Made by a program: the position numbers and the translations under genes. This document shows, in pieces, positions 9,550 through 21,697 of a DNA stretch of 33,999 nucleotides; positions within the stretch are counted from its first letter, which is position 1; every line of letters starts with the position of its first letter. The stretch comes from an uncultured Bacilli bacterium (GTDB lineage Bacteria; Bacillota_I; Bacilli_A; RF39; UBA660), in contig CALVQP010000002.1 of NCBI GenBank assembly GCA_944358225.1, positions 1-33,999 on the forward strand. Reading direction: 5' to 3'. Under the pieces are notes generated by a model. That model was not told where the DNA came from, did no database searches, and saw nothing but the letters and a program-made list of their open reading frames with translations.

Positions 9550-11235
9550 TTACATCTTACTTGGCACATCAATTACTAATAAACTAAGTAATGTTTTAAT
9601 GCTCATCGCCGTTAATCCTATTAAATTCAACCATTCTATCTTTTTTACATCATCTTCACAAGTTAAAATATGATTATGCTGATAAAAAGCATTAGCACAT
9701 ACACATAAATTATAAACATAATCAGCAATATATGATGGTTTTCTTTCGACAAAAGCGCTATTTAAAGCAGTGCTAAGTTCTAAAAGTTTCATTCTTAAAT
9801 CTCGATCATATTCATTATAAATTACTTCGTTAAAAACATATTTTTGACTATTTTCCCCTAAGATTTTTTTTAATCTTACATAAGTATATAAAATATAAGG
9901 ACCCGTTTTACCAACAACATCACTAAACTTATTTAAATCAAAAATATAATCTTTATCTCTAGAGTTTACTAAATCAGCAAATTTTAAAATTGCATTTACA
10001 ACAATATTCAAATCCTGATTATTCATATTTTCATTTTCTTCACGTTTACTAACAAAAATATTTTTTGTTTGCTCAAATAAACTTGCTAAAGCAGGCGCAT
10101 CCCCATTTCTTGTTTTAAAAGGTTTATTATCATTGCCATTAACTGTTCCATAACCTAAAAATTCTAAATTTTTATAATCTATTAATCCTAAGCTTTCACT
10201 AACGCGAAAAACTTGTTCAAAATGCAAACTCTGGCGATTATCTACAACATATAAAATGTGATTAGGATTATACTTATTTACCCGATCATATATAGTTGCT
10301 AAATCAGTTGAAGCATATAAATAAGCACCATTACTCTTTTTAAATAACAAAGGGGGAATTTCTTTTTTATCCGTATCTTTGCTTACTTCAACAACTAAAG
10401 CTCCTTGACTTTTTTGAAGTAAACCTTTTTTTCTTAATAAATTTTCTACCGTACTCAAATAAGGATATGCATCACTTTCTCCTAGCCATAAATCAAAATC
10501 AACATTCAAATACTCATATAATTTTTTCATATCAGCAATAGAAACTGCTAATATCTTCTTAAAATACTTTTGATATTCTTCATTATTATCTTGTAATTGT
10601 TTAGTTATCAAAGCACAAGTATCTTTAACTTGTTCATCTTCTTTACATAAACTACTCACCTTGGGATATATACGGTTTAAGTCTTCAATTGTAATTTCAT
10701 CTATTTTAATATTTTCTTGCTTCAAACCATAAATTACTTGTCCTATTTGTAACCCATAATCACCTAAATGAATATCACTAATTGTTTTATGACCCATATA
10801 TTTAATAATTCTTTTTAGACTTTCTCCAACTATTAAAGTACGCATATGTCCTACATGTAAAGGTTTAGCTACATTTGCTCCCCCATAATCTAAAATAAAT
10901 AATTCTTCCTTTATTGGTTTAGATATACCTAAATGTTCATTTAAAGTTTCTAAATTTTCATTAATAAATTTATCACTTAATGTGAAATTTAAAAAACCAG
11001 GCTTAACAAACTCAATATTTTTAAATATATCTGTTAAAGAACTATCAACACAAGCCATTATTTTTTGACCTATTTCTATAGGCGAACGACTATATAATTT
11101 AGCTAATTTAAAAATATCATTAGATTGATAATCACAACTTTGTTCCTTACTTGATTTCGTAATTACTACCTTATCTACATCAAAACCGCTTTTTAAAAAC
11201 AATTCCTTTACTACTTGTTCTAATTTAAAAATCAT
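9550..11235 (-). CDS. argS: Arginine--tRNA ligase
   Basis: 561 aa. Class I HIGH motif (ANVAKPLHVGHMR) and a typical ArgS C-terminal anticodon-binding region ending in M. Confidence 0.93.
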   Translation of the reverse strand: MIFKLEQVVKELFLKSGFDVDKVVITKSSKEQSCDYQSNDIFKLAKLYSRSPIEIGQKIMACVDSSLTDIFKNIEFVKPGFLNFTLSDKFINENLETLNEHLGISKPIKEELFILDYGGANVAKPLHVGHMRTLIVGESLKRIIKYMGHKTISDIHLGDYGLQIGQVIYGLKQENIKIDEITIEDLNRIYPKVSSLCKEDEQVKDTCALITKQLQDNNEEYQKYFKKILAVSIADMKKLYEYLNVDFDLWLGESDAYPYLSTVENLLRKKGLLQKSQGALVVEVSKDTDKKEIPPLLFKKSNGAYLYASTDLATIYDRVNKYNPNHILYVVDNRQSLHFEQVFRVSESLGLIDYKNLEFLGYGTVNGNDNKPFKTRNGDAPALASLFEQTKNIFVSKREENENMNNQDLNIVVNAILKFADLVNSRDKDYIFDLNKFSDVVGKTGPYILYTYVRLKKILGENSQKYVFNEVIYNEYDRDLRMKLLELSTALNSAFVERKPSYIADYVYNLCVCANAFYQHNHILTCEDDVKKIEWLNLIGLTAMSIKTLLSLLVIDVPSKM

Positions 11236-11990: not shown

Positions 11991-12318
11991 ATGTTACTAA
12001 GTTTATTAAGTCTATTTAAACAAATGCTTTTTTTCACTGGAAGTTATTCCAATAATGTTTTTCCAGATCCTCTAAGTAAAGAAGAAGAAGAACATCATAT
12101 CAAATTAATGTTAGCAGGAAATAAAGATTCACGTAATAAATTAATTGAACACAATCTGCGCTTAGTTGCTCATATTGTCAAAAAATTCGACAACGCTAGT
12201 AATGATAATGACGACCTAATAAGTATTGGCACTATTGGATTAATTAAAGGAATTGATACTTATAAAAACAGCCATAAAACAAAAATTACTACCTACTGTG
12301 CCCGTTGTATTGAAAATG
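11991..12318 (+). CDS. sigK: 5' segment of pro-sigma-K gene (spoIVCB-like)
   Basis: The pro-sequence and regions 1.2/2 (IEHNLRLVAHIVKKF, DLISIGTIGLIKGIDTY, YCARCIEN) match recalled SigK up to CIEN. Beyond 12318 the frame runs 28 unrelated codons to TAA at 12402-12404. Confidence 0.9.
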
Positions 12319-12328
12319 CAACGTTCAC
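12303..12328. other. attL junction (core AATG at 12315-12318)
   Basis: sigK homology ends here. The same AATG recurs at 21326-21329, where sigK homology resumes. Confidence 0.8.
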
Positions 12329-12826
12329 ATCAAAGAACTTTTTGATAGAACTAATGCACTATTTAAACGAATTGGAACTAAACTACAACTTTCTTACACG
12401 TTAACAACCCATACGTGTTGGAACTTAACACCAATAACGTCGGAAAGTACGTTCGGTGAACAAATAAAATATTATCGTAGACTTAACGATGTTAAGCAAA
12501 CGGAATTGGGTATTAAGTTAAACTTTGAGAGAAGTACCCTAAACCACCTTGAAAACCACGAGATAAAACTTGTAAACGTTAATCTAATAAAAGGAATAAT
12601 AGAAGAACTAGGAATTGAAGATGAAATCAACATAAATGACGATTATATTAACTTCTTACTTAATAACCCTTGTGAGAAGATAAGAAAAACACGAAAGAAA
12701 ATGAAACTTACCTTACAACAATTTGGCGACTTACTAGGTGTAAGTGATACATCAGTAAGACGTTGGGAACACGGAAATTGTCAGATAAGTAGAAAAAAAT
12801 ACGAGAGACTTAAAGATTATATTTAA
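12317..12826 (+). CDS. Start-less coding segment (169 codons) with two XRE-type HTH domains; predicted 3' end of the recombinase gene on the excised circle
   Basis: The frame is open from 12314 with no ATG/GTG/TTG before the called TTG at 12506. HTH1 (FGEQIKYYRRLNDVKQTELGIKLNFERSTLNHLENHE) straddles that TTG. HTH2 is LTLQQFGDLLGVSDTSVRRWEHG. The frame matches the recombinase frame across attP. Confidence 0.6.
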   Translation, partial: CNVHIKELFDRTNALFKRIGTKLQLSYTLTTHTCWNLTPITSESTFGEQIKYYRRLNDVKQTELGIKLNFERSTLNHLENHEIKLVNVNLIKGIIEELGIEDEININDDYINFLLNNPCEKIRKTRKKMKLTLQQFGDLLGVSDTSVRRWEHGNCQISRKKYERLKDYI

Positions 12827-12848
12827 TCAACAAGTCTCTCTTTTATTT
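12803..12848 (+). terminator. Hairpin terminator at the end of the HTH segment
   Basis: Stem gagagact/agtctctc (8 bp), a loop containing the TAA, then a ttttatttt run. Confidence 0.55.
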
Positions 12849-13005
12849 TATCTATTATTCCGTAAAGTATTTTTTCTTTTTCATCAATGCTTACGTTTAA
12901 TTTTCTTATACCTAACAAGACAAGTTCACTTTGTAATTTAGCAAACTCACTATAAAACTCACACCAACCAGTTTTATCAGTTGGTAAGTTCATTATCAGT
13001 TTCAC
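12823..13005 (-). CDS. Small protein, paralog of 18150..18341
   Basis: Shared pattern NLPTD...F..FAKLQ..LV...I.KLNV. The first 15 nt of the conserved part are identical in both copies. GTG or ATG start. Confidence 0.45.
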   Translation of the reverse strand: MKLIMNLPTDKTGWCEFYSEFAKLQSELVLLGIRKLNVSIDEKEKILYGIIDKIKERLVD

Positions 13006-13059
13006 ACTATCACCAATTAAGTATATGAAAAGTTTTTATAAATCTGAACACGAAAGGAA

Positions 13060-13323
13060 GTGGTATTAACGGACAAAAGGTTATTGCCTATAAAAGATAT
13101 GGAATTCACTATCAACAATGATATGGAAGAAGAAGTCTTTGTGTTATTGTCAATACAACAAATACTGAATTCTACTGAATTAAGTAAAAGAGAAAAGAAG
13201 CTGTTAGAGAAACTAAAATTTGAAATACTAGATGACTTTAGGTCTCAATTACATAGTCTTAATCTTACACAAGTTGCAATTGCAAGAGCATTCCTTAATG
13301 GCAAAAAAAATGATGAGAGATAA
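13060..13323 (+). CDS. Hypothetical protein (start uncertain; alternative ATG at 13099)
   Basis: ORF track. Ends in a hairpin. No family recognised and the RBS is poor. Confidence 0.35.
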   Translation: MVLTDKRLLPIKDMEFTINNDMEEEVFVLLSIQQILNSTELSKREKKLLEKLKFEILDDFRSQLHSLNLTQVAIARAFLNGKKNDER

Positions 13324-13341
13324 GCACTGAACTTATCTCTC
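13315..13341. terminator. Hairpin between convergent genes
   Basis: Stem gagagataa/ttatctctc with an 8-9-nt loop (cactgaac), then tttatt. Confidence 0.55.
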
Positions 13342-13342
13342 T

Positions 13343-13672
13343 TTATTCGCAACCATTATTATTTGTTCTTTTAGTTGTTGCTTTACCATAACCTAATTCA
13401 ACTCGATTAGAATATCTACAGCCAGCACAATTAACTGCAATTTGTTGTCTTGGGTCTTTTTGAAATTCCCAAATAATCTCTTGAAAGCACTCTCTAAATA
13501 GTTGCATAAACTCTTTCTTCTTGTTCTCGTGTTCTTGTTGCATTTGATTATACTTTTCAATTCCGTTCTCAATGATGAAGTTTAAGTCATATTCAAGAGT
13601 GTTTTTCTTTGGCTCTGATAGTCCTAATAATTCCTCAATATCTAAATCAATACTTACTTTCTTATTCGCCAT
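13343..13672 (-). CDS. Hypothetical protein
   Basis: ORF track. GGAGG lies 9 nt upstream, and the ORF overlaps the upstream Xis-like ORF by 11 nt, which suggests translational coupling. Confidence 0.5.
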   Translation of the reverse strand: MANKKVSIDLDIEELLGLSEPKKNTLEYDLNFIIENGIEKYNQMQQEHENKKKEFMQLFRECFQEIIWEFQKDPRQQIAVNCAGCRYSNRVELGYGKATTKRTNNNGCE

Positions 13673-13847
13673 TTGTCTTAACCTCCATAAGTTCTAAAAA
13701 CTTGTAATATTCATATTCACTTACTAAATAATCTTTTGATATTTTAGTTGCCTTTAATGTTCCATTTTTTATTAGTCTCTTAAGATAAATAACTGATGTA
13801 TGGGTCATCTCATTTATTTCTTTCAATGTATAAAACTTTTCTTTCAT
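13662..13847 (-). CDS. Excisionase/MerR-like HTH DNA-binding protein
   Basis: 61 aa. YTLKEINEMTHTSVIYLKRLIKNGTLKATKI resembles the excisionase-family HTH pattern. GGAGG RBS. Confidence 0.6.
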   Translation of the reverse strand: MKEKFYTLKEINEMTHTSVIYLKRLIKNGTLKATKISKDYLVSEYEYYKFLELMEVKTNGE

Positions 13848-13895
13848 CTAACCTCCAAAAATACTAGGTGGGGGGTGGTTAAGTAAAGTGCCACT

Positions 13896-13918
13896 AAAAA
13901 AAAGGACATATAAGTCCT
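13896..13918 (-). terminator. Weak terminator after the RepL-like gene
   Basis: Minus strand: AGGAC-TTATAT-GTCCT followed by T8. Confidence 0.45.
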
Positions 13919-13938
13919 ATGCCCCTACCTAAATTTAC

Positions 13939-14466
13939 CTAATCATTTTGAGTATTCCATTTACTCTTTTTAAATATTCTATATAGTGTTGCATTGATGT
14001 AAGTCCCATTCTGAAATATAAAGGGGTTCATTATAAACACACTATTTCTTCCGGACTTTGTCCTTGCCATAATGTTTAATTTGATGAGTCTATTAACACT
14101 CTCGTTAAATGTATTATGCGACATATCTGCCAGTTCAAGAAATCTTGCTTTACTTATATTAACACCATCTTCTATTAAGACACCACTAGTCTTATCTAAA
14201 TAAGCAAGTGCGATTAGAATAAGTTTATAATCACTCTTGGTTAAATCTTCTCGTGCAAGTATTCCTATTGTATCTTTATATACTTTAACAAACGTATTGT
14301 TCTTCTTTATGACCTTACGATTTGCCATATAATCTTTTTGTTCTTTAGTATAGACTCGCAAAGAATCTCCCTCTCTTAAAGAGTATTCTATCTCACCAGT
14401 ATCGGTGTTCATAAATTGGCAGACTATTTCTTCATCAGTAATTTGCTTACGTTTTACTTGTTCCAT
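13939..14466 (-). CDS. RepL-like winged-helix replication/maintenance protein
   Basis: Colinear with recalled firmicute plasmid RepL (D..TGEI.., NTFVKVY, a wHTH region, then MNPFIFQNG). The likely start is the ATG at 14466, with GGAGG 5 nt upstream. The track ORF extends to 14496. Confidence 0.55.
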   Translation of the reverse strand: MEQVKRKQITDEEIVCQFMNTDTGEIEYSLREGDSLRVYTKEQKDYMANRKVIKKNNTFVKVYKDTIGILAREDLTKSDYKLILIALAYLDKTSGVLIEDGVNISKARFLELADMSHNTFNESVNRLIKLNIMARTKSGRNSVFIMNPFIFQNGTYINATLYRIFKKSKWNTQND

Positions 14467-14496
14467 AACTACCTCCAAGTTGTAAATACATACCAA

Positions 14497-14806
14497 TTTT
14501 AGTTTTAAAACAACCTAAATAGACCTCAATTGTTTGGTATGATATGTCCCAATATACTGGTATCTTTTTTTGTTTAAAAGTCCGATAAATAAAGGAAAAC
14601 TGCTTGTCTTTCTTCTTATCTTTTCTTATATATAATTGTAAAGTTAATTTTATTAAGTTTAACTCTACTATAATGTATATATATAAATAATATATATATT
14701 AGTAATATACTCTATATTACCCAAAAACCTTTTGTAAACCTCCTTAAATTGCTTTAACAAGACAATGGTATGTCTTACATAAATCTTTTACAATTAAATT
14801 CTAATA
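14497..14806. other. AT-rich intergenic region with TA-tracts and short repeats (candidate origin/promoter)
   Basis: Contains AGTTAA..TTAACT, AAGTTnAA twice, and gtatatatataaataatatatatatt tracts. It lies immediately upstream of the RepL-like gene. Confidence 0.3.
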
Positions 14807-14995
14807 TTATTTTGTGGCTTGTGTTAAGTCTTTAGAGTAAACAAAAACAAGAGCATTAAGTTGCTCTTGCGATAAATAGTATCTACTACCAATTTTAGTA
14901 TAAGATATTATGTTGTTAACTACCCAACTATAAAGTGTCTTATATGACACACCAATTTCTTTACAAGCACTTTTCAATGGTATTAAGTCTCTAAT
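14807..14995 (-). CDS. Unlisted small excisionase/AlpA-like HTH protein (start uncertain: ATT at 14995 or 14998, or TTG at 14977)
   Basis: Hand translation: (IIRDLIP)LKSACKEIGVSYKTLYSWVVNNIISYTKIGSRYYLSQEQLNALVFVYSKDLTQATK*. GGAGG is at 15008-15004. There is no in-frame ATG or GTG. Confidence 0.5.
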   Translation of the reverse strand: MRDLIPLKSACKEIGVSYKTLYSWVVNNIISYTKIGSRYYLSQEQLNALVFVYSKDLTQATK

Positions 14996-15063
14996 AATAT
15001 CTACCTCCTCATATATATAGTAGTTTATAAGAAACTTTCATACAATTTCGTGTATTTTTGTAT

Positions 15064-15090
15064 AAAAAAAGTATATAGCATTTGCTATAC
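15064..15090 (-). terminator. Terminator of the three-gene cargo operon
   Basis: Minus strand: GTATAGCA-AA-TGCTATA(T)AC followed by T7. Confidence 0.6.
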
Positions 15091-15091
15091 A

Positions 15092-16585
15092 CTATCTATT
15101 ATGTTTATTAGTATCACTATTTTGACCTAAAGTTTGTTCTAACAACATTTTATATTCACTACTATCAAATATTTGAGGTTGTGGAAATTGACCAAACTTG
15201 CTTTGATAATACTGCATTACTTCATTAAAAGTTCCTTTTGCAACATCAGTTGAATATTGTTGTGAGAAAGTTGTAAGTTGTCTTTGTTTGTACTCACTCA
15301 TTAAGTCTGTTCTATTATAACCGGCAAAAACGTTGAATTGTTCGTGAGAGTAAGCCATACCATTAGGATTATATATAGGACAAAAGTTAGGGTTAGTAAT
15401 AAATCCATCAATAGTTTTGTTATATACCCCTTGAATTAAATTTGGACTAAACACACTATTACCATCACCAGTATTTTTCCATAAAGGCATAGGGACATCA
15501 CAACTACCGTCTCTATGAGGTTGACAAGATAAATACTCTTTAGGAACTTTAATTACAAATACTGATTTAAAATCTTCTAATTGAGAATATGACTTCATTA
15601 TACTTTCTAGACCTTGTGTTTTAATATCTTCATCACTAATTGGTGCTAGAGTAGAATGTAGACTAAGTGATATATCATTTTCTAATATTAAACCATTATT
15701 GAAGAAATCTGCTAAAGCCTCCGGACTTTCATTTGCCGTCCCGTGAAGAAAGTAAGCATATTCTATGTTATTCTGTTTAACACCAATTTTATTTAAAAAG
15801 TTCTCATCTTGTATCTCTAAAGTTAGACTTTGTAATAATTGAGAGTTGTTTTTTGAAACTGATTTAACAAGCCCTTGTATAAAACTTATTATTTGTTCTT
15901 TTCTTGTATCTAACAGTTTCATATCTGCGTCATTTAATTTGGCATAGTGTTTTGTTTTACTTAAAGCATATATTTCATTCATCATACTTGCAAACGAACT
16001 AAACTTTCCATTTGTAAGACTATCAAATTCTTGCTCAAACATATTGTTATTATTAAGATATTGATTAGCTAGTTTATCAGCACCAATAATAACTTTCATA
16101 ACTCGCATTACATTTTTAACAAAATATAAATAATCTTCACTTTCACTTAAACGGCATTGTTCTATATCTTCTGCAAATAATTGAGTGATTGCTTCATCAA
16201 GACCAGTATATATGCTTTGTCCGTTTCCTTGATATTGATGTCCAAAAAAATGTTGATTGCCATCTTTCATTTGACTTAATCCGTGTAAGACTTCGTGTGT
16301 AGTTTGAACGTTAGTTATTTGAGGGTTATTTAAAGCAAAAGTTTCATCTATATAAATTTCCTTTGACCCATCTTGAAATGGCCAACAAACCATATTAGAC
16401 CATCTAATTTGTCTTACTGGGGCATAGAACAAATTAAAACCCTTACTCATATTTTGTTCTAAATTATTTACTAATACTATATTTCTAAAGTATTCCCAAG
16501 CCATTCTTTTTTTATTGTTTATTACATCAAGAGGTTGTTGTTTTCTATACTTTAATAATTCATTATATTGTTCTTGTAGTGTCAT
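15092..16585 (-). CDS. 497-aa two-domain protein: N-terminal HExxH zincin-like domain plus uncharacterised C-terminal domain
   Basis: HEVLH at aa 97-101 (nt 16297-16283) with GLDEAITQ about 30 aa downstream, a gluzincin-like spacing. The C-terminal half carries FLHGT and HEQFNVF motifs. AGGAGG RBS. No signal peptide or TM. Confidence 0.6.
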   Translation of the reverse strand: MTLQEQYNELLKYRKQQPLDVINNKKRMAWEYFRNIVLVNNLEQNMSKGFNLFYAPVRQIRWSNMVCWPFQDGSKEIYIDETFALNNPQITNVQTTHEVLHGLSQMKDGNQHFFGHQYQGNGQSIYTGLDEAITQLFAEDIEQCRLSESEDYLYFVKNVMRVMKVIIGADKLANQYLNNNNMFEQEFDSLTNGKFSSFASMMNEIYALSKTKHYAKLNDADMKLLDTRKEQIISFIQGLVKSVSKNNSQLLQSLTLEIQDENFLNKIGVKQNNIEYAYFLHGTANESPEALADFFNNGLILENDISLSLHSTLAPISDEDIKTQGLESIMKSYSQLEDFKSVFVIKVPKEYLSCQPHRDGSCDVPMPLWKNTGDGNSVFSPNLIQGVYNKTIDGFITNPNFCPIYNPNGMAYSHEQFNVFAGYNRTDLMSEYKQRQLTTFSQQYSTDVAKGTFNEVMQYYQSKFGQFPQPQIFDSSEYKMLLEQTLGQNSDTNKHNR

Positions 16586-16601
16586 TTTAAAACCTCCTTA
16601 A

Positions 16602-17234
16602 TTACTTTATATTTTTTATTGACTTTAGCACATTTTTATCATCAAATTCCAATTCAAATAGTTCTGGACAATTCCAATTGCCATCAAAAACCATTTCATT
16701 ATTGAAATATATTTCTATCAATTTGTTATCTTCATTTAGAATAACATCACAACATTTAGATAGCATAGTCGAAATAGCAGTTCCGTGAGATACAACGGCA
16801 ATTTTCTTATTAGAATGCTTATTTAATATATCTGCTATTGCATTATTCATTCTTTCCGATACTTCATTTGCAGACTCACCATTATCAAGTTTATAATCCC
16901 AGTCTCTAAACTGATTCTCAAAAAAGTCTTTTGGAAGTTCATACATATTATTTACCCCAAATCTTCTCTCACCAAGTCTCTCATCAACATTTAATAAAAT
17001 GTTATTGTTGGTTGCAATATATTTAGCAGTACACATTGCTCTTACATAATGAGACGAGTAAATTACATCTATATTTTGTAATTCCTCACGTTTGCTCATT
17101 TGTTCTGCAAGTCTTTCACCCTCAACACTTAACATATTCTTTTCATTTCTAATTTGCTCAACTTCGTTAACGTTGTAATCACCCAACAAAGACCTAAATG
17201 GTTGTGAGTGTCTTAACAAATAAATAGTTGTCAT
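16602..17234 (-). CDS. Histidine phosphatase (phosphoglycerate mutase-like superfamily)
   Basis: LLRHSQ (RH motif), SSHYVRAMCTA, ERLGERRFG and VVSHGTAIS are all present in order. GGAGGG RBS. Confidence 0.8.
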   Translation of the reverse strand: MTTIYLLRHSQPFRSLLGDYNVNEVEQIRNEKNMLSVEGERLAEQMSKREELQNIDVIYSSHYVRAMCTAKYIATNNNILLNVDERLGERRFGVNNMYELPKDFFENQFRDWDYKLDNGESANEVSERMNNAIADILNKHSNKKIAVVSHGTAISTMLSKCCDVILNEDNKLIEIYFNNEMVFDGNWNCPELFELEFDDKNVLKSIKNIK

Positions 17235-17253
17235 TATAATTCACCCTCCGATA

Positions 17254-17688
17254 TTACTTTATATTAAATTCATCTTTCATCATTTCAAATATTTTAAGTC
17301 TTTCTTCTTTAGTAAAAATGTCTTTTTGTTTCTTGAATTTGCTTAAAGCCCATTTCCAAAAATTATAACCAAAATGCTTGTCCTTGTATACCTTGCCAAA
17401 CAATTTTAATTCATCTTTATATCGTGGTACAAAGTGATAATGGACGTGTGGTTTCTCATTATCTCTATAAGCATTATTCATTAAGCAAGCAAAGTTAAAC
17501 ATTGTTGCACCAAAAACTTTTTTACAAACTCTTTCAAGTTCTTTCTCAAGTTGTCCTAGTTCTTCCCAAGCCTCCGGTGTTAAATCACTTAAAGATTTTT
17601 TATCATTCCCTATGATACAATAACCAACAAATTCTTGACACCAGTCGCCAAAAATAACGTCCCAATTTTTTCCTTTATACAATTCCAT
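17254..17688 (-). CDS. HIT-family (histidine triad) protein
   Basis: The HVHYHFVPRY histidine triad lies about aa 80-90 of 144, preceded by a typical FN.A.L.N segment. GAGGTGG RBS. Confidence 0.8.
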   Translation of the reverse strand: MELYKGKNWDVIFGDWCQEFVGYCIIGNDKKSLSDLTPEAWEELGQLEKELERVCKKVFGATMFNFACLMNNAYRDNEKPHVHYHFVPRYKDELKLFGKVYKDKHFGYNFWKWALSKFKKQKDIFTKEERLKIFEMMKDEFNIK

Positions 17689-17727
17689 AGTTCCACCTCA
17701 ATTATAATTATACTATATTTAAGCAAA

Positions 17728-17759
17728 TTTAAAAAGCACATAACTTTTTATTATGTACT
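17728..17759 (-). terminator. Terminator separating the 18341-17801 unit from the HIT operon
   Basis: Minus strand: AGTACATAA-TAAAAAG-TTATGTGCT (9 bp, one G-U) followed by TTTTTAAATTT. Confidence 0.6.
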
Positions 17760-17800
17760 TTTGAGTTTGTTAGACGTTCTAGAAAGTTCTTAACTAGTAT

Positions 17801-18157
17801 CTATTTAGTTCTTTCTTGGTTAAAATTTATTCCCAAGATGTAATTTAGTTTTTGAAATTGGCTATAATAACCTTTCATCTCGTTGCATAGACTTTTTATT
17901 CTATTAACATAATGGTTGCTTGATGTGTTTACTGGCTTAATATTTTTTAAATATTTAGTAAACATAGTTAATTCTTTGTCAGTTATATTTCTTTGAGAAT
18001 AAGCACTCATATATGCCTTAATAAATTCCTTTTGAACAAAGTTTAGTATTTGTTCTTCGTTTATATCAGTTAAAGGCTTATTATGTCTTTTTTTATTTCC
18101 CTTATTATTCCCATTATTTTGCTTATTACTTGCAATAGTGTTATCACTATTATTCAT
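17801..18157 (-). CDS. Hypothetical protein with basic Asn/Lys-rich N-terminus
   Basis: ORF track. GGAGG lies 9 nt upstream, and the ORF overlaps the upstream small ORF by 8 nt. Confidence 0.5.
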   Translation of the reverse strand: MNNSDNTIASNKQNNGNNKGNKKRHNKPLTDINEEQILNFVQKEFIKAYMSAYSQRNITDKELTMFTKYLKNIKPVNTSSNHYVNRIKSLCNEMKGYYSQFQKLNYILGINFNQERTK

Positions 18158-18341
18158 CTTTCTTTACCTCCTTGACTTTATTTTTAAGTAGTTCTAGAAC
18201 ACCTATACAAACATTTTCTTTAGATGTATCGTCAACATTAAGTTTCTTAATTGACTCTGCAACTAACTTGGCTTGTAGTTTAGCAAATTGTTCATTAAAC
18301 ATACTTTTTTCTTTATCATCAGTTGGTAAGTTAATAATCAA
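18150..18341 (-). CDS. Small protein, paralog of 12823..13005
   Basis: IINLPTDDKEKSMFNEQFAKLQAKLVAESIKKLNV aligns with the other copy. TTG start without a well-placed SD, so the start is uncertain. Confidence 0.45.
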   Translation of the reverse strand: MIINLPTDDKEKSMFNEQFAKLQAKLVAESIKKLNVDDTSKENVCIGVLELLKNKVKEVKKDE

Positions 18342-18437
18342 CTTGATGACAATACATCTCCTTTCCCCCTTACTTGCAAATAATAAACCGGTTTCTTCTT
18401 TGCATAACCATCATATCAAACTAAAATATTATTACAA

Positions 18438-18488
18438 TAAAAAAAGTGCATTTTTTACCTTTAGTACCGAACGGCAAAATTTGCACTT
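18438..18488 (-). terminator. Long-loop hairpin after the 313-aa ORF
   Basis: Minus strand: AAGTGCA ... TGCACTT followed by T7. The loop is about 31 nt, so this is weak. Confidence 0.4.
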
Positions 18489-18489
18489 C

Positions 18490-19431
18490 TTATATATTTA
18501 TAACTTTTGAGTAAGTAGATTCTTGTAAGTCAATTGCAACACTTTCAAATAAAGTAAATGATGAGATGTACTTGTTATTTTCTCTTTCAATAATCTCTTG
18601 AATTAAAGTTAACCCTTTATGGTTTTTGCCTTGACTTAATAAGTTATACACCTCGTGTAGTTCGTAGTATTCTTTCAAGTAGTATATGTCTCTACAATTA
18701 GCCATATTTTTATTGTCATCAAAATAGTCTTGCAACAACTCAATGGCTTTAACATTATATTTTGTAATTAAGTAGTTGTTTACATCTGCAATAGTAATAA
18801 GTAAATAACTAATTTGATTATATAGTGTTGCCTTATACTTGCTTTCTATAAACACATTATCAAAGTAAATCTTTTTAAACTTTAAGATAACCTTATCATT
18901 ATTAAGCGAACAATGGACTCTTTTCTTAATGTTGTCTACTATTGACCTATCATATATGATATTTTCACCCATAACCCAACAATAATGCTCGTTATCTATT
19001 TCTTGCATTTCGTCATAGATGTAATCTTTAAAGCCCTCAAAATCACGTTCAAACTTATCTTGCCAACTAACTAGTGTTTCTAGTTTTTTATATACCTTGT
19101 TTATATATTCGTTTGTTAAATTGTCTTTGTTAACACTAATATACATATTATATAAAGGTACACTTCTATTAACTGAATAATAGTGGCGACCGGCTTTCAA
19201 ATACATTTGCTTTATGTTATCAATAGCATTTTGAACACTACCACGTCTTGCAATAGCATTATTACATCTAATAATAAAGTCTATGGTATCAATAATAAAT
19301 CTTGGTATATAATCACCACTTCTGATAACATATCTTTTATTGCCTCTGCATAAATAAGCCAAATATGTTTGTTCACTAAACTTATTGTCAAAATAATTGT
19401 GGAACTTAAAGTCTTTCTTTAAGTGAGACAT
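18490..19431 (-). CDS. 313-aa orphan protein, divergent from the recombinase
   Basis: ORF track with a GGAGGGGG RBS. No motif recognised. Confidence 0.55.
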   Translation of the reverse strand: MSHLKKDFKFHNYFDNKFSEQTYLAYLCRGNKRYVIRSGDYIPRFIIDTIDFIIRCNNAIARRGSVQNAIDNIKQMYLKAGRHYYSVNRSVPLYNMYISVNKDNLTNEYINKVYKKLETLVSWQDKFERDFEGFKDYIYDEMQEIDNEHYCWVMGENIIYDRSIVDNIKKRVHCSLNNDKVILKFKKIYFDNVFIESKYKATLYNQISYLLITIADVNNYLITKYNVKAIELLQDYFDDNKNMANCRDIYYLKEYYELHEVYNLLSQGKNHKGLTLIQEIIERENNKYISSFTLFESVAIDLQESTYSKVINI

Positions 19432-19503
19432 ATAACCCCCTCCAGTTAGTCAATTATTATAACACAACTTTAAGCGAAAATCTGCCCTAAAATGCTTTTA
19501 TTT

Positions 19504-19542
19504 TTATGTGTTATGTGATATATTATTAGTATAATCACATAA
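19504..19542. promoter_or_regulatory. Repeat cluster over the recombinase promoter (TTATGTG x2 direct; TTATGTGAT-N14-ATCACATAA inverted)
   Basis: A perfect 9-bp inverted repeat (19511-19519 / 19534-19542) brackets TATAAT at 19530-19535. An additional TTATGTG lies at 19504-19510. Confidence 0.45.
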
Positions 19543-19560
19543 AAGAAAGGAACTGATTTT

Positions 19561-21330
19561 ATGGGTAATGACAATATAGCAAAAATAAGAAACGATTTAA
19601 GGAAATATGTTATATATTCTCGTAAGTCAAAATTTACTGGTAAGGGTGAGTCAGTAGAAAACCAAATTGAAATATGTAAGGCATACATCAAGAGTAAATT
19701 TGATATAAACATTAAAGACGAAGATATTATCATTAAACAAGATGAGGGCTTTAGTGGTAAAGATGTCAAACGTCCTCAATTTCAAGAGATGATGAAACTT
19801 GTTAAAGACAAGCAAGTTAAAATGATAGTGGTATATAAACTGGATAGACTCTCTCGTAATGTTCTAGACTTCTGCGAGATGTATAATGAACTAGAATTAT
19901 ATGATACTAAATTTGCTAGTGTATCAGAAAGTTTTGATACTACTACTTCAATGGGACGTGCTATGCTTATGATAACAATGACGTTCGCCCAACTAGAACG
20001 AGAAACAATTGCAGAACGTATCAGAGACAATATGATGGAACTTGCTAAAACTGGACGTTGGCTTGGTGGTAATACACCTATGGGCTTTGAGTCAGAAAAA
20101 ATGGAAAAGTTTAACATCAATGGTAAAAAGGTTTCACTATACAAATTAAGCCCTATAAATGATGAAATAGAGATTATAAAACTTATCTATGATAAATACC
20201 TAGAATTAAAGTCTTTAACCACTCTAGAAACGTTTTTACTTAACAATAATCTAAAGACAAGACGTGAGTGTGATTTTGCTCGTTGGGGGCTTAAAAAGAT
20301 ACTTACAAACCCCGTTTATGCAATAGCAGACAAAGATATGTTCAATTACTTTAAAGACAATGATATGGACATATTTAACGAGGAAATTGACTGGGACGGA
20401 ACTTATGGTGTTATGAGTTATAACAAGACTAGTAAAACCAAAACTGGTAGTGTTAAAACTAAAGACAAAGACCAATGGATAAATGCTATTGGAAAACATC
20501 AAGGAATTATTAAAGGTAAAGACTGGGTAGAAGTTCAAACATTACTTAATAGTAATCAGAACAAGGCATACAGACTACCAGTTAAAAATAATTCTATTCT
20601 AGCCGGTATATTAAGATGTGAACATTGTGGCAACCTTATGAGACCAAAACTTAAAGACACAACACTTCCTAATGGCGATAGAAAGTTTAACTATATATGC
20701 GACCTTAAAATGAGGTCTAGAGGTAAACAATGCAATTGTCCTAACGTTAATGGAAACGAGGCAGACAAACTTGTTATTGACGGAATAAAGGAACTTGCTA
20801 AACCTACTAGTGAGTTCTACCAAGAACTACTTAAAGTTATTAAATATGAAAACTATGGCAAGAATAGTCAGACAACTGAATTAGAAGTGTTAGAAAGAAA
20901 ACACAACCAAAACCTTGCTAGTATTAAAAATTATATCTCTCGTATAGAATATGTTGATGAAGATTTATTAGATGACGTACAAAACAAAATAAAAGATTTA
21001 AAACAAAAGGACAAAGAAGTTGTAGCGAAAATTCAAGAACTTAAAGAGACACAACCAGACTCTTACACCGACCAAGAAACTGCTAAAATGCTTGTATACA
21101 TACTTGATAACTATATGAGCAACTTTACTGAACTTGATTTACTATCACAAAGAAACTTCTTAAAGTTGTTTATAGGTAATTGTTCTACTGATGGAAAAGA
21201 CATACATATTGACTTAATCGGTAGTAGAAATCATACAACAACCTATCAACCAGTTTTTGAAGGTAGTGAGAATTCCGAAACCGGAACTCACGGAGGACAA
21301 ATCGTTCTTTTAAGTGATAGTAGCGAATGA
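19561..21330 (+). CDS. Large serine recombinase (SpoIVCA-like), integrated-state form of 589 aa
   Basis: N-terminal resolvase domain (VIYSRKS catalytic Ser, VYKLDRLSRN), a recombinase domain, a zinc ribbon (CEHCG..CDLK..CNC), and a coiled-coil. The stop TGA at 21328-21330 straddles the attR core. Confidence 0.92.
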   Translation: MGNDNIAKIRNDLRKYVIYSRKSKFTGKGESVENQIEICKAYIKSKFDINIKDEDIIIKQDEGFSGKDVKRPQFQEMMKLVKDKQVKMIVVYKLDRLSRNVLDFCEMYNELELYDTKFASVSESFDTTTSMGRAMLMITMTFAQLERETIAERIRDNMMELAKTGRWLGGNTPMGFESEKMEKFNINGKKVSLYKLSPINDEIEIIKLIYDKYLELKSLTTLETFLLNNNLKTRRECDFARWGLKKILTNPVYAIADKDMFNYFKDNDMDIFNEEIDWDGTYGVMSYNKTSKTKTGSVKTKDKDQWINAIGKHQGIIKGKDWVEVQTLLNSNQNKAYRLPVKNNSILAGILRCEHCGNLMRPKLKDTTLPNGDRKFNYICDLKMRSRGKQCNCPNVNGNEADKLVIDGIKELAKPTSEFYQELLKVIKYENYGKNSQTTELEVLERKHNQNLASIKNYISRIEYVDEDLLDDVQNKIKDLKQKDKEVVAKIQELKETQPDSYTDQETAKMLVYILDNYMSNFTELDLLSQRNFLKLFIGNCSTDGKDIHIDLIGSRNHTTTYQPVFEGSENSETGTHGGQIVLLSDSSE

Positions 21331-21339
21331 AATATTGAT
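21314..21339. other. attR junction (core AATG at 21326-21329)
   Basis: sigK homology resumes at AAT-GAA-ATA-TTG-ATG (N-E-I-L-M). Confidence 0.8.
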
Positions 21340-21697
21340 GTTTTTTCGTTCCAACAAAAAAAATGACAATAATGTTAGTTTAAATGATTCAATTGGTTAT
21401 GATAAAGAAGGAAACGAAATTAACTTAATTGACGTAATTAAAGATGATAACCAAGATATATTATCAACAATTCATAATCAACATAATATTAATCTTTTAA
21501 ATAAATATTTAAAATTATTAACTCCCCGGGAAAAAGAAATAATAATAAAAAGGTATGGCTTAAACAACCAAGAAGAACAAACTCAAAAAGAAATAGCTGC
21601 CGATTTAAAAATATCTCGCAGCTACGTTTCACGTATTGAAAAAAGAGCTTTAACAAAAATTTTAAAAGAATTTATTAAAAGCAAAAATGAAATCTAA
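21326..21697 (+). CDS. sigK: 3' segment of the sigma-K gene (spoIIIC-like)
   Basis: NEILMFFRSNKK..VSLNDSIGYDKEGNEINLIDV..LTPREKEII..TQKEIAADLKISRSYVSRIEKRAL covers sigma-70 regions 3/4 and is colinear with recalled SigK. Confidence 0.9.
   Translation, partial: NEILMFFRSNKKNDNNVSLNDSIGYDKEGNEINLIDVIKDDNQDILSTIHNQHNINLLNKYLKLLTPREKEIIIKRYGLNNQEEQTQKEIAADLKISRSYVSRIEKRALTKILKEFIKSKNEI

Follow-up and report, generated by a model that had tools for sequence, protein, structure and literature searches.

A large serine recombinase gene that probably spans the attachment site of a sigK-intervening element from uncultured gut Bacilli

We analysed a 33,999-nucleotide stretch of DNA (hereafter the window; positions 1 to 33,999, forward strand, of contig CALVQP010000002.1, GenBank assembly GCA_944358225.1) from an uncultured Bacilli bacterium of the RF39/UBA660 lineage, in which an insert carrying a gene for a large serine recombinase (LSR) splits the host sporulation gene sigK. 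With a probability that we put at about 0.85, the insert is a mobile, sigK-targeting integrative element whose own attachment site, attP, lies inside the recombinase gene. The integrated element would then encode a 589-amino acid (aa) LSR closed by a stop codon that the host supplies, and the free element a 758-aa form in which the LSR continues through a linker into two helix-turn-helix (HTH) domains. Both forms were predicted in a first-pass annotation, a model's reading of the bare sequence, and they are backed by the phase of the two gene parts in related loci, by purifying selection on the detached part, by contiguous genes on un-integrated relatives and by the Clostridium phage vB_CpeS-CP51 (CP51).

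Results

Excision in silico fuses two reading frames

The LSR open reading frame (ORF) lies at the right end of the insert (coordinates of all features are given in Table 1). Its N-terminal domain is of the resolvase type, with the catalytic motif VIYSRKSK and a match to Pfam Resolvase (PF00239, E=1e-33, residues 17-167). This is followed by Recombinase (PF07508, E=2e-14, 200-331) and Zn_ribbon_recom (PF13408, E=9e-9, 346-409) domains, the zinc ribbon having the inserted coiled coil of LSRs, probably at about 420-520. The ORF ends at TGA 21328-21330, which is the AAT GAA of host sigK read in another frame. A terminator scan found no terminator-like site between this stop and the end of sigK.

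At the opposite end of the insert, next to the 5' part of sigK, is an ORF that had been called from a TTG at 12506. Its frame is open back to 12314, directly after a TGA (12311-12313) in sigK DNA, and the 64 codons from 12314 to 12505 (63 counting from TGC 12317) contain no ATG, GTG or TTG. From base composition, the chance of about 63 stop-free codons in DNA of 27-30% GC is estimated at ~0.004. The TTG has no Shine-Dalgarno (SD) sequence and falls inside the first HTH domain (FGEQIKYYRRLNDVKQTE-L-GIKLNFERSTLNHLEN), within a stretch that is conserved in all homologs. The 169-aa product matches HTH_3 (E=4e-10), HTH_31 (E=6e-9) and also HTH_37, and has both the HTH_3-type fold and the sequence signature of Cro/C1 (XRE) DNA-binding domains. 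In an AlphaFold2 (AF2) model of this module, two HTH domains follow a long N-terminal helix and a linker; the confidence score (pLDDT) is 87 overall and about 90 in the HTH domains. The top Foldseek matches are HipB, C-proteins and SinR, all weak (E at least 0.03). Since a PDB sequence search and Foldseek gave only generic XRE regulators and no other functional clue, the specific function of the module cannot be read from its neighbours.

When the ends of the insert are joined in silico over the shared AATG (21327/21329 to 12317/12319), TGA becomes TGC and a single 758-codon ORF runs to the TAA at 12824-12826. The crossover thus falls within the integrase reading frame, as computed for the window and as seen directly in the un-integrated relatives L044, L045-47 and CP51, and the C-terminus of the recombinase differs between the integrated (589 aa) and free (758 aa) states. 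The complementary join of the sigK flanks gives an intact SigK (...YCARCIEN/EILMFFRS..., the slash marking the junction); as in skin-type elements, an interrupted sigK ORF is restored by precise excision.

All six sequence statements of the first-pass annotation hold. Recomputed coordinates bear out the recombinase stop (from ORF 19561..21330), the 9011-bp spacing of the core copies and the conversion of the stop to TGC on excision. A recount bears out the start-less frame reaching back to 12314, and the dismissal of TTG 12506 as a start stands with it. The recombinase gene does lack a terminator of its own when integrated, and its frame does run into the start-less frame and end at the TAA within a hairpin, the arms of which we place at 12794-12849. 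This inverted repeat, which has the stop between its arms, separates the HTH ORF from a convergent small ORF (12823..13005) and is likely to be a bidirectional terminator; it was missed by the GC-demanding terminator scan.

Attachment sites and crossover

The two AATG copies (12315-12318 and 21326-21329) are flanked by arms of the kind expected for a serine integrase: an attP of ~50 bp with imperfect inverted-repeat arms, a central dinucleotide and short identity to attB. The arms read gttcttttaagtga and TCACATCAAAGAAC (attL versus the left arm of attR), and their inner GTGA and TCAC are 18 bp apart. The P arm, which is found within attR, encodes the final LSR residues ..QIVLLSDSSE. The in-silico attP junction of the window is ...GATAGTAGCGAATGCAACGTTCAC... 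and the restored attB ...TGTATTGAAAATGAAATATTGATG....

Hosts in which the sigK Asn codon is AAC (L008, L030 and L031) have T in attL and C in attR, which places the crossover in the AA 5' of the polymorphic base. The TGA stop is therefore wholly host DNA and the TGC wholly element DNA. The first-pass annotation had taken the stop to be the TG of the core plus one sigK-derived base; it was right about the position of the stop, and the T/C polymorphism rules against a crossover after TG.

Phase and selection in related sigK-inserted loci

We took 38 related loci from species-representative genomes, all of them gut or rumen metagenome-assembled genomes (MAGs) labelled Bacilli, Tenericutes or Clostridia. 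Both element ends are present in 15 loci, and the junction is readable in 34. The HTH ORF adjoins sigK (...CIEN/) at one same point in nearly all 38, and tblastn places the sigK 5' fragment next to the HTH ORF, at the same insertion point, in ~35. Elements of the family are 5 to 9.8 kb long, and LSR identity to the window ranges from 46 to 98% across the 15 two-ended loci.

The LSR stop lies inside the element in none of the 15. Most of the LSR ORFs end on a TGA that spans the junction. An AAC Asn codon in the host turns the TGA into CGA, and the ORF then runs 4-10 codons into sigK. Among LSR homologs at large, more than 100 clusters are all 585-611 aa long, and the 595-aa forms run on into sigK where the host has AAC. 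After in-silico attP joining, the HTH ORF is open to the left end and in phase with the LSR in 14 of the 15 two-ended loci. In the sole exception, L031, the frame is shifted by 1 nt at ~25 nt before the junction; the conserved peptide FPTGENCK can still be read in the in-phase frame. As an argument for a joint gene, this recurrence of the phase among relatives weighs more than the chance estimate for the open frame.

Within the window subfamily the 169 codons have no insertions or deletions. The ratio of nonsynonymous to synonymous substitution rates (dN/dS) is 0.05-0.14 for the two HTH domains (codons 48-169), including comparisons among copies without a start codon, and 0.12-0.7 for the linker (codons 9-47). 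The module, which appears to be untranslatable in the window's integrated state, is thus under strong purifying selection.

The element does not appear to be a fixed relic. The LSR of the window is 97.6% identical to that of L001, whereas the SigK N-termini of the same pair are only 65% identical, which argues that the element is mobile. The comparison points to a recent horizontal spread of this small, sigK-directed element through uncultured gut Bacilli. For L003 the corresponding values are 92.7% (LSR) and 61% (SigK N-terminal parts); the L001 and L003 elements are 9.2 and 6.9 kb long, respectively.

Database records of the HTH part look different from what the loci contain. Most homologs are annotated as 173-aa proteins that start M[YHCR][RGS]K-CN.H.., and their extra four codons are host sigK (..ARC(I/V)EN..) read out of frame, the NTG start being made of the Arg wobble base and the TG of the Cys codon. 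These proteins (P0001-P0022 and similar) are, by this reading of their first codons, gene-caller chimeras, and this artefact of annotation conceals that the gene is split. The equivalents of the chimera codons in the window (12305-12319) read TTG TAT TGA AAA, stop included.

Un-integrated relatives with a contiguous gene

We searched 1.84 billion representative proteins with a profile built from the HTH part. The uninterrupted LSR homologs of ~750 aa with two C-terminal HTH domains that the first-pass annotation had proposed to look for do exist: contiguous proteins of 753, 716 and 736 aa were found, each with Resolvase, Recombinase and Zn_ribbon domains followed by HTH_3. The 753-aa protein, P0230, shares 44% identity with the predicted 758-aa fusion over residues 17-755 of the latter and is collinear with it through the junction (LSDSSE/CNVHIKEL in the fusion, LGENSK/CAPHITEL in P0230). 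It is encoded on L044, a 7,514-bp contig of an NCBI MAG whose two ends overlap exactly over 141 bp, so that the molecule is a circle of 7,373 bp. The GC content of L044 is 29% and the contig lacks sigK; the DNA at its junction, given as AGCAAATGCGCA and as AGCAAATGCGCAcctcac, agrees with the family attP. The other relatives of P0230 are truncated forms of 555-650 aa (119 of 119 among the matches listed), and P0230 was not found in viral contigs. The 716-aa protein, P0284, is encoded on 15 contigs of up to 19.4 kb, where the junction reads AGCAAATGCAAT and phage-like genes (rolling-circle Rep, FtsK, holin and M23 peptidase) lie on both sides.

A cultured and packaged phage also carries such a gene. 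CP51 (KC237729) encodes a 655-aa LSR-HTH_3 protein (phiCP51_0029, 'putative resolvase') that is 35% identical to the LSR of the window, and a perfect 15-bp attP-like inverted repeat lies inside the gene. IMG/VR proviruses that are 99% identical to CP51 match it up to ...CACAGCATGTCCAG and then diverge inside the inverted repeat: the proviruses continue TATCTAA and end in ..SHSMSSI at 571 aa, with the stop in non-phage DNA, and the phage continues into the HTH domain. Both coding states are thus seen, at the level of sequence, for one phage.

Phages of the CP51 type (L043 4178-4223 in CP51 itself; L050-L053, L058, L060) integrate at a site that reads ..ATGTCCAG/TATCTAA on the host side, with TATCAAGTAA in L053 and ..ATGACCTG/TATCTAG in L060, so that the provirus LSR ends in ..SSI (..SSIK in L053, ..TCI in L060). 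Further contiguous LSR-HTH forms of 650 aa occur in L065, L067 and L068.

Alternative explanations

Several observations weigh against an attP within the recombinase gene. Among 58 HTH and 120 LSR homologs we found neither an attP junction nor a 758-aa protein of the window's own subfamily. Protein searches with the 169-aa part and with the 758-aa fusion likewise gave no fused protein at close range. A tblastn comparison of the 169-aa part with phage and plasmid records gave generic HTH matches or nothing, and attP junction patterns had 0 matches in viral contigs. In metagenome contigs the junction pattern had 3 matches, which we ascribe to chance because all are in unrelated DNA of 59% GC. 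Near the junction, the phase is partly held at the DNA level by the recombinase-binding arms. Both protein forms are predicted from sequence, and the role of the HTH module is conjecture. A second subfamily (subfamily 2) has ATG, GTG or TTG at codons 5-6, within the P' arm. At 11 of the 34 readable junctions the host donates an in-frame start without an intervening stop, and L033 uses the ATG of its core, with an SD-like AGGTG 8 nt upstream. Some members may thus be able to translate the HTH part independently in the integrated state, and non-canonical initiation of the HTH ORF may also be compatible with the sequence.

The donated starts could mean that the HTH ORF is an independent gene, translatable only when integrated, which takes an NTG start and a promoter from sigK and is expressed in the mother cell, its phase with the LSR being incidental. 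The predominance of 173-aa calls with an M[YHCR][RGS]K start fits this explanation, as do the 11 loci and L033 just mentioned. We nevertheless consider it improbable, because at 21 of the 34 junctions, that of the window and those of 4 of its 6 nearest relatives among them, a host TGA or TAA stands 0-1 codon upstream (the remaining two are one locus that is open without a start and the phase-shifted L033). Whether a locus has a start or a stop tracks the wobble base of the host Ile/Val or Asp codon, and no candidate HTH start in any locus except L033 is preceded by an SD; the donated start is therefore likely to be incidental. The strong purifying selection on HTH domains in start-less copies and the contiguous LSR-HTH genes on un-integrated relatives likewise speak against it. 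In L033 itself (9926-10471) the HTH ORF lies in a different phase at the junction and starts at the core ATG, the AGGTG being in sigK; this start may have evolved independently for expression in the integrated state.

Less probable again is translation of the HTH ORF on its own, in either DNA state, from an internal or non-canonical start, for example as a distal cistron on the circle, with the fusion a minor product or absent. Candidate starts are the codons 5-6 of subfamily 2, where H-(M/V)-L-E (CAC ATG/GTG TTG GAA) follows a few codons past the junction, and ATT, ATC or ATA in the window; in addition, the distant homologs P0035, P0041, P0048 and P0051 are called from an internal M in the same alignment column (MF..LKD). 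The subfamily 2 codons, however, are part of the conserved P' arm (CACATGTTGGAAA) and may for that reason serve DNA recognition. None of the internal candidates has an SD, and the window subfamily has no start codon over 40-83 codons and no canonical start before the middle of the first HTH. On the circle, moreover, nothing would halt ribosomes arriving in the LSR frame, and the fusion would be made anyway. That the start-less ORF is what remains of a former regulator gene, a decaying pseudogene that shares the phase of the LSR by chance, has next to nothing in its favour beyond two damaged loci among the 38 (L017 and L037) and the lack of a fused protein of the window subfamily on record. It is effectively refuted by an ORF that is intact in ~35 loci of different host species at a dN/dS of 0.05-0.14, by the phase in 14 of 15 loci and by contiguous homologs that are collinear over 750 residues. 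In L017 the damage is a 4-nt linker deletion at about 9990, relative to the near-identical L011; L037 (9653-15488) has a 33-codon HTH fragment beside sigK and a second sigK 5' fragment 5 kb away.

Two routes from sigK into the HTH frame were considered and rejected. In the integrated state, the ORF of the sigK 5' fragment (11991-12404) extends 28 element codons (..CIEN-ATFTSKNFLIELMHYLNELELNYNFLTR, then a stop) and overlaps the HTH frame. A programmed frameshift from this frame into the HTH frame within the 29-codon overlap would lack a canonical slippery heptamer; nor is the overlap itself conserved, the sigK' frame of L009, for instance, ending after 9 codons. For re-initiation past the sigK' stop (12402-12404), no start codon follows.

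Promoter region, small genes and cargo

The inverted repeat in the putative LSR promoter is conserved upstream of the LSR start in the family (L001, L003-L006, L008, L012, L015, L021 and L031). Its right half and the bases that follow (ATCACATAAAAGAAAG) resemble the P' arm of attP (TTCACATCAAAGAACT). In 11 of 15 loci the best match to the P' arm lies at -26 to -29, and the two sequences vary together from one subfamily to another (L031: 14 of 16). The resemblance hints at binding of this promoter by the recombinase itself or by its HTH module.

The small ORF that converges on the HTH part (12823-13005, minus strand) has the motif ..NLPTD....FAKLQ..LV....KLNV.. and no Pfam match. It has a paralog within the element (18150-18341, minus strand) and a counterpart at the same position on L044 (3337-3504, minus strand), and is a candidate accessory or directionality factor. 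Two small proteins of the excisionase-type HTH_17 family, encoded at 13665-13847 and 14810-14977 (both minus strand; E=1e-3 and 3e-6), are candidate recombination directionality factors (RDFs). The cargo further comprises a histidine phosphatase (16605-17234), a HIT-like protein (17257-17688), a weakly Phage_rep_O-like protein (13942-14496) and a 497-aa protein without a Pfam match (15095-16585).

Table 1. Coordinates of the split sigK gene, the inserted element, its attachment sites and its recombinase gene parts in the window.
Feature	Position	Strand	Remarks
Host sigK, 5' segment	11991..12316	+	SigK residues 1-109; up to the crossover dinucleotide
Host sigK, 3' segment	21328..21697	+	resumes at third base of Asn codon, ..N/EILMFFRS.. 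to stop
Mobile insert	12317-21327		9,011 bp; 29.6% GC; between the two sigK parts
attL	12293..12341		core AATG 12315-12318; crossover AA 12315-12316 (inferred)
attP P' arm (attL right half)	12317-12341		TGCAACGTTCACATCAAAGAACTTT
attR	21303..21352		core AATG 21326-21329; left half (to 21327) is the attP P arm
Start-less ORF	12317..12826	+	169 codons plus TAA; would be the 3' part of the recombinase gene on the excised circle
Long helix and linker of start-less ORF (predicted)	codons 1-47
First HTH domain (approximate limits)	12458..12631	+	alignment; AF2 helices 50-102; weak Pfam HTH_37/HTH_26 at residues 49-107
Second HTH domain (approximate limits)	12668..12823	+	Pfam HTH_3/HTH_31 at residues 122-165 of the 169-aa part; AF2 helices 122-170
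Inverted repeat around TAA stop	12794-12819 / 12824-12849		repeat search; 26-nt arms, 77% complementary, 4-nt loop
LSR promoter/operator region (inferred)	19514..19552	+	TGTGAT-N14-ATCACA over extended -10, then ATCACATAAAAGAAAG, then SD AAAGGAA
LSR ORF, integrated form	19561..21330	+	589 codons plus TGA

Discussion

If attP lies inside the recombinase gene, as we think probable, one gene of the free circle would run from a promoter at ~19514 through the catalytic, recombinase and zinc-ribbon plus coiled-coil domains and a low-complexity tail, continue over the arms and core of attP, and end in the helix-linker and two Cro/C1 HTH domains, 758 aa in total. Because the circle encodes only this long form, it follows logically that the long form must perform attP x attB integration. 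Integration would cut the gene at the crossover AA. The integrated copy would retain a complete 589-aa LSR closed by the sigK-derived TGA, and the 169-codon HTH module would be left at the opposite end, behind the 5' half of sigK, where it would be silent because it has no start codon, ribosome-binding site or promoter of its own. Excision, which would take place in the mother cell during sporulation if skin elements are a guide, or else upon induction, would rebuild both sigK and the long gene, and the short form together with an RDF would presumably be the excision enzyme.

The HTH module presumably has a regulatory or accessory role in DNA binding and serves as a mark of the free state. Our preferred reading of its role, which we hold tentatively, is that it represses or autoregulates element genes while the element is free. 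Direct action on recombination directionality, or prevention of re-integration, is possible and seems to us rather doubtful. The same applies to the idea of a built-in sensor of DNA state, an unlikely reading as it stands, in which the module would make the long form competent for integration through accessory DNA binding, or repress element genes and the recombinase promoter, the short form would be excision-only and, in sporulating cells, the rebuilt long form would decide on re-entry of the circle into sigK.

A comparable serine integrase has been described in the phage vB_BsuS-Goe14. The enzyme, reported as 28% identical to SpoIVCA, targets spoVK, and attP falls within the part of its gene that codes for the C-terminus. 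When the phage integrates, the enzyme loses 131 aa and the lost C-terminus remains as a 97-aa ORF; in the authors' conjecture, the long form is the integrating enzyme and the short form the excising one (bioRxiv 10.1101/2021.11.22.469490). By this description, Goe14 resembles the present element in having a SpoIVCA-like LSR that is cut short upon integrating into a sporulation gene. The belief of the first-pass annotation that an attP within the integrase gene had no precedent among skin-type LSRs is therefore out of date, self-truncation having been reported for Goe14 in 2021. Goe14 is a ~130-kb SPbeta-like phage with spoVK as its target, whereas the element described here is a 5-10 kb, non-phage-like island in sigK whose detached part, of 169 aa, has two recognisable Cro/C1 HTH domains. 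Beyond what is described for Goe14, we find family-wide conservation, purifying selection and a host-donated stop.

Among other recombinases, the integrase ORFs of the Myxococcus phage Mx8 (IntP/IntX) and the fusellovirus SSV1 extend over attP, and integration alters (Mx8) or splits (SSV1) the gene (PMC4383910). Those enzymes are tyrosine recombinases, whereas the enzyme here is a serine recombinase; SSV-type integration splits the gene in two, and neither Mx8 nor SSV1 loses a discrete DNA-binding module. In Mx8, as Tojo and colleagues reportedly found in 1996, the C-terminus is swapped for a short host-encoded peptide.

In skin-type elements, an LSR-bearing element interrupts sigK and precise excision restores the ORF (PMC5025042, PMC3442830), and the element of the window is like them in both respects, the rejoining being in silico. 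None of the members compared, which are B. subtilis skin (SpoIVCA), C. difficile skinCd (CD1231 with its RDF CD1234) and C. perfringens phiS63, has been described with a recombinase gene crossing attP. Unlike these named elements, the present family is small (5-10 kb) and is known from the sequences of uncultured gut Bacilli and Clostridia MAGs. phiS63 was considered as a close relative and rejected: it sits at a different position (core GTAATGAAAT) and in the opposite orientation.

A link between DNA state and protein form is also said to underlie the integration-dependent immunity of mycobacteriophages, for which Broussard and colleagues, in 2013, reportedly placed attP inside the repressor gene. 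There too, integration changes the C-terminus of an HTH-containing protein. In the mycobacteriophages, the site lies in the gene of a stand-alone repressor, which is activated or stabilised by the truncation; in the present element it lies in the integrase gene, and the HTH part, having no start or SD after integration, is lost from expression. CP51 resembles the present element in its contiguous LSR with a C-terminal HTH_3, its in-gene attP-like repeat and its shortened proviruses; it differs in having one HTH instead of two, an attB (..GTCCAG/TATCTAA) that is not sigK, and the genome of a 39-kb siphovirus. Olorunniji et al. 2017 (PMC5737554) report that the direction of recombination can be set by a polypeptide attached to the C-terminal end of a serine integrase. 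Those fusions are artificial and the fused part is a known RDF, whereas the HTH module here is recognisable as XRE-type by sequence. We found no literature describing the gene split for sigK elements or for CP51, subscription journals lying outside our coverage. What appears to be new is the split gene in sigK-intervening elements, the tandem-HTH nature of the detached part, its conservation in a large family that includes a cultured Clostridium phage, the evidence for selection and the host-donated stop.

In the organization proposed here, a recombination event would rewrite the gene of the enzyme that performs it, a switch that links DNA state to protein form. A state-specific, C-terminal DNA-binding module is a testable candidate for explaining the directionality of serine integrases in nature and what keeps excised sigK elements from re-integrating. 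If the module is a sensor of DNA state, directionality would be set without sole reliance on a separate RDF, or alongside one, and the arrangement would then parallel, in nature, the engineered integrase-RDF fusions and be for serine recombinases what integration-dependent immunity is for repressors. Surveys of prophage integrases and routine annotation show only the 589-aa form and a chimeric 173-aa 'regulator'; for such families, the actual attP x attB integrase would be the longer protein, which is absent from prophage-derived catalogues. CP51 of C. perfringens, as a cultured system that displays both states, may provide an experimental handle on this switch.

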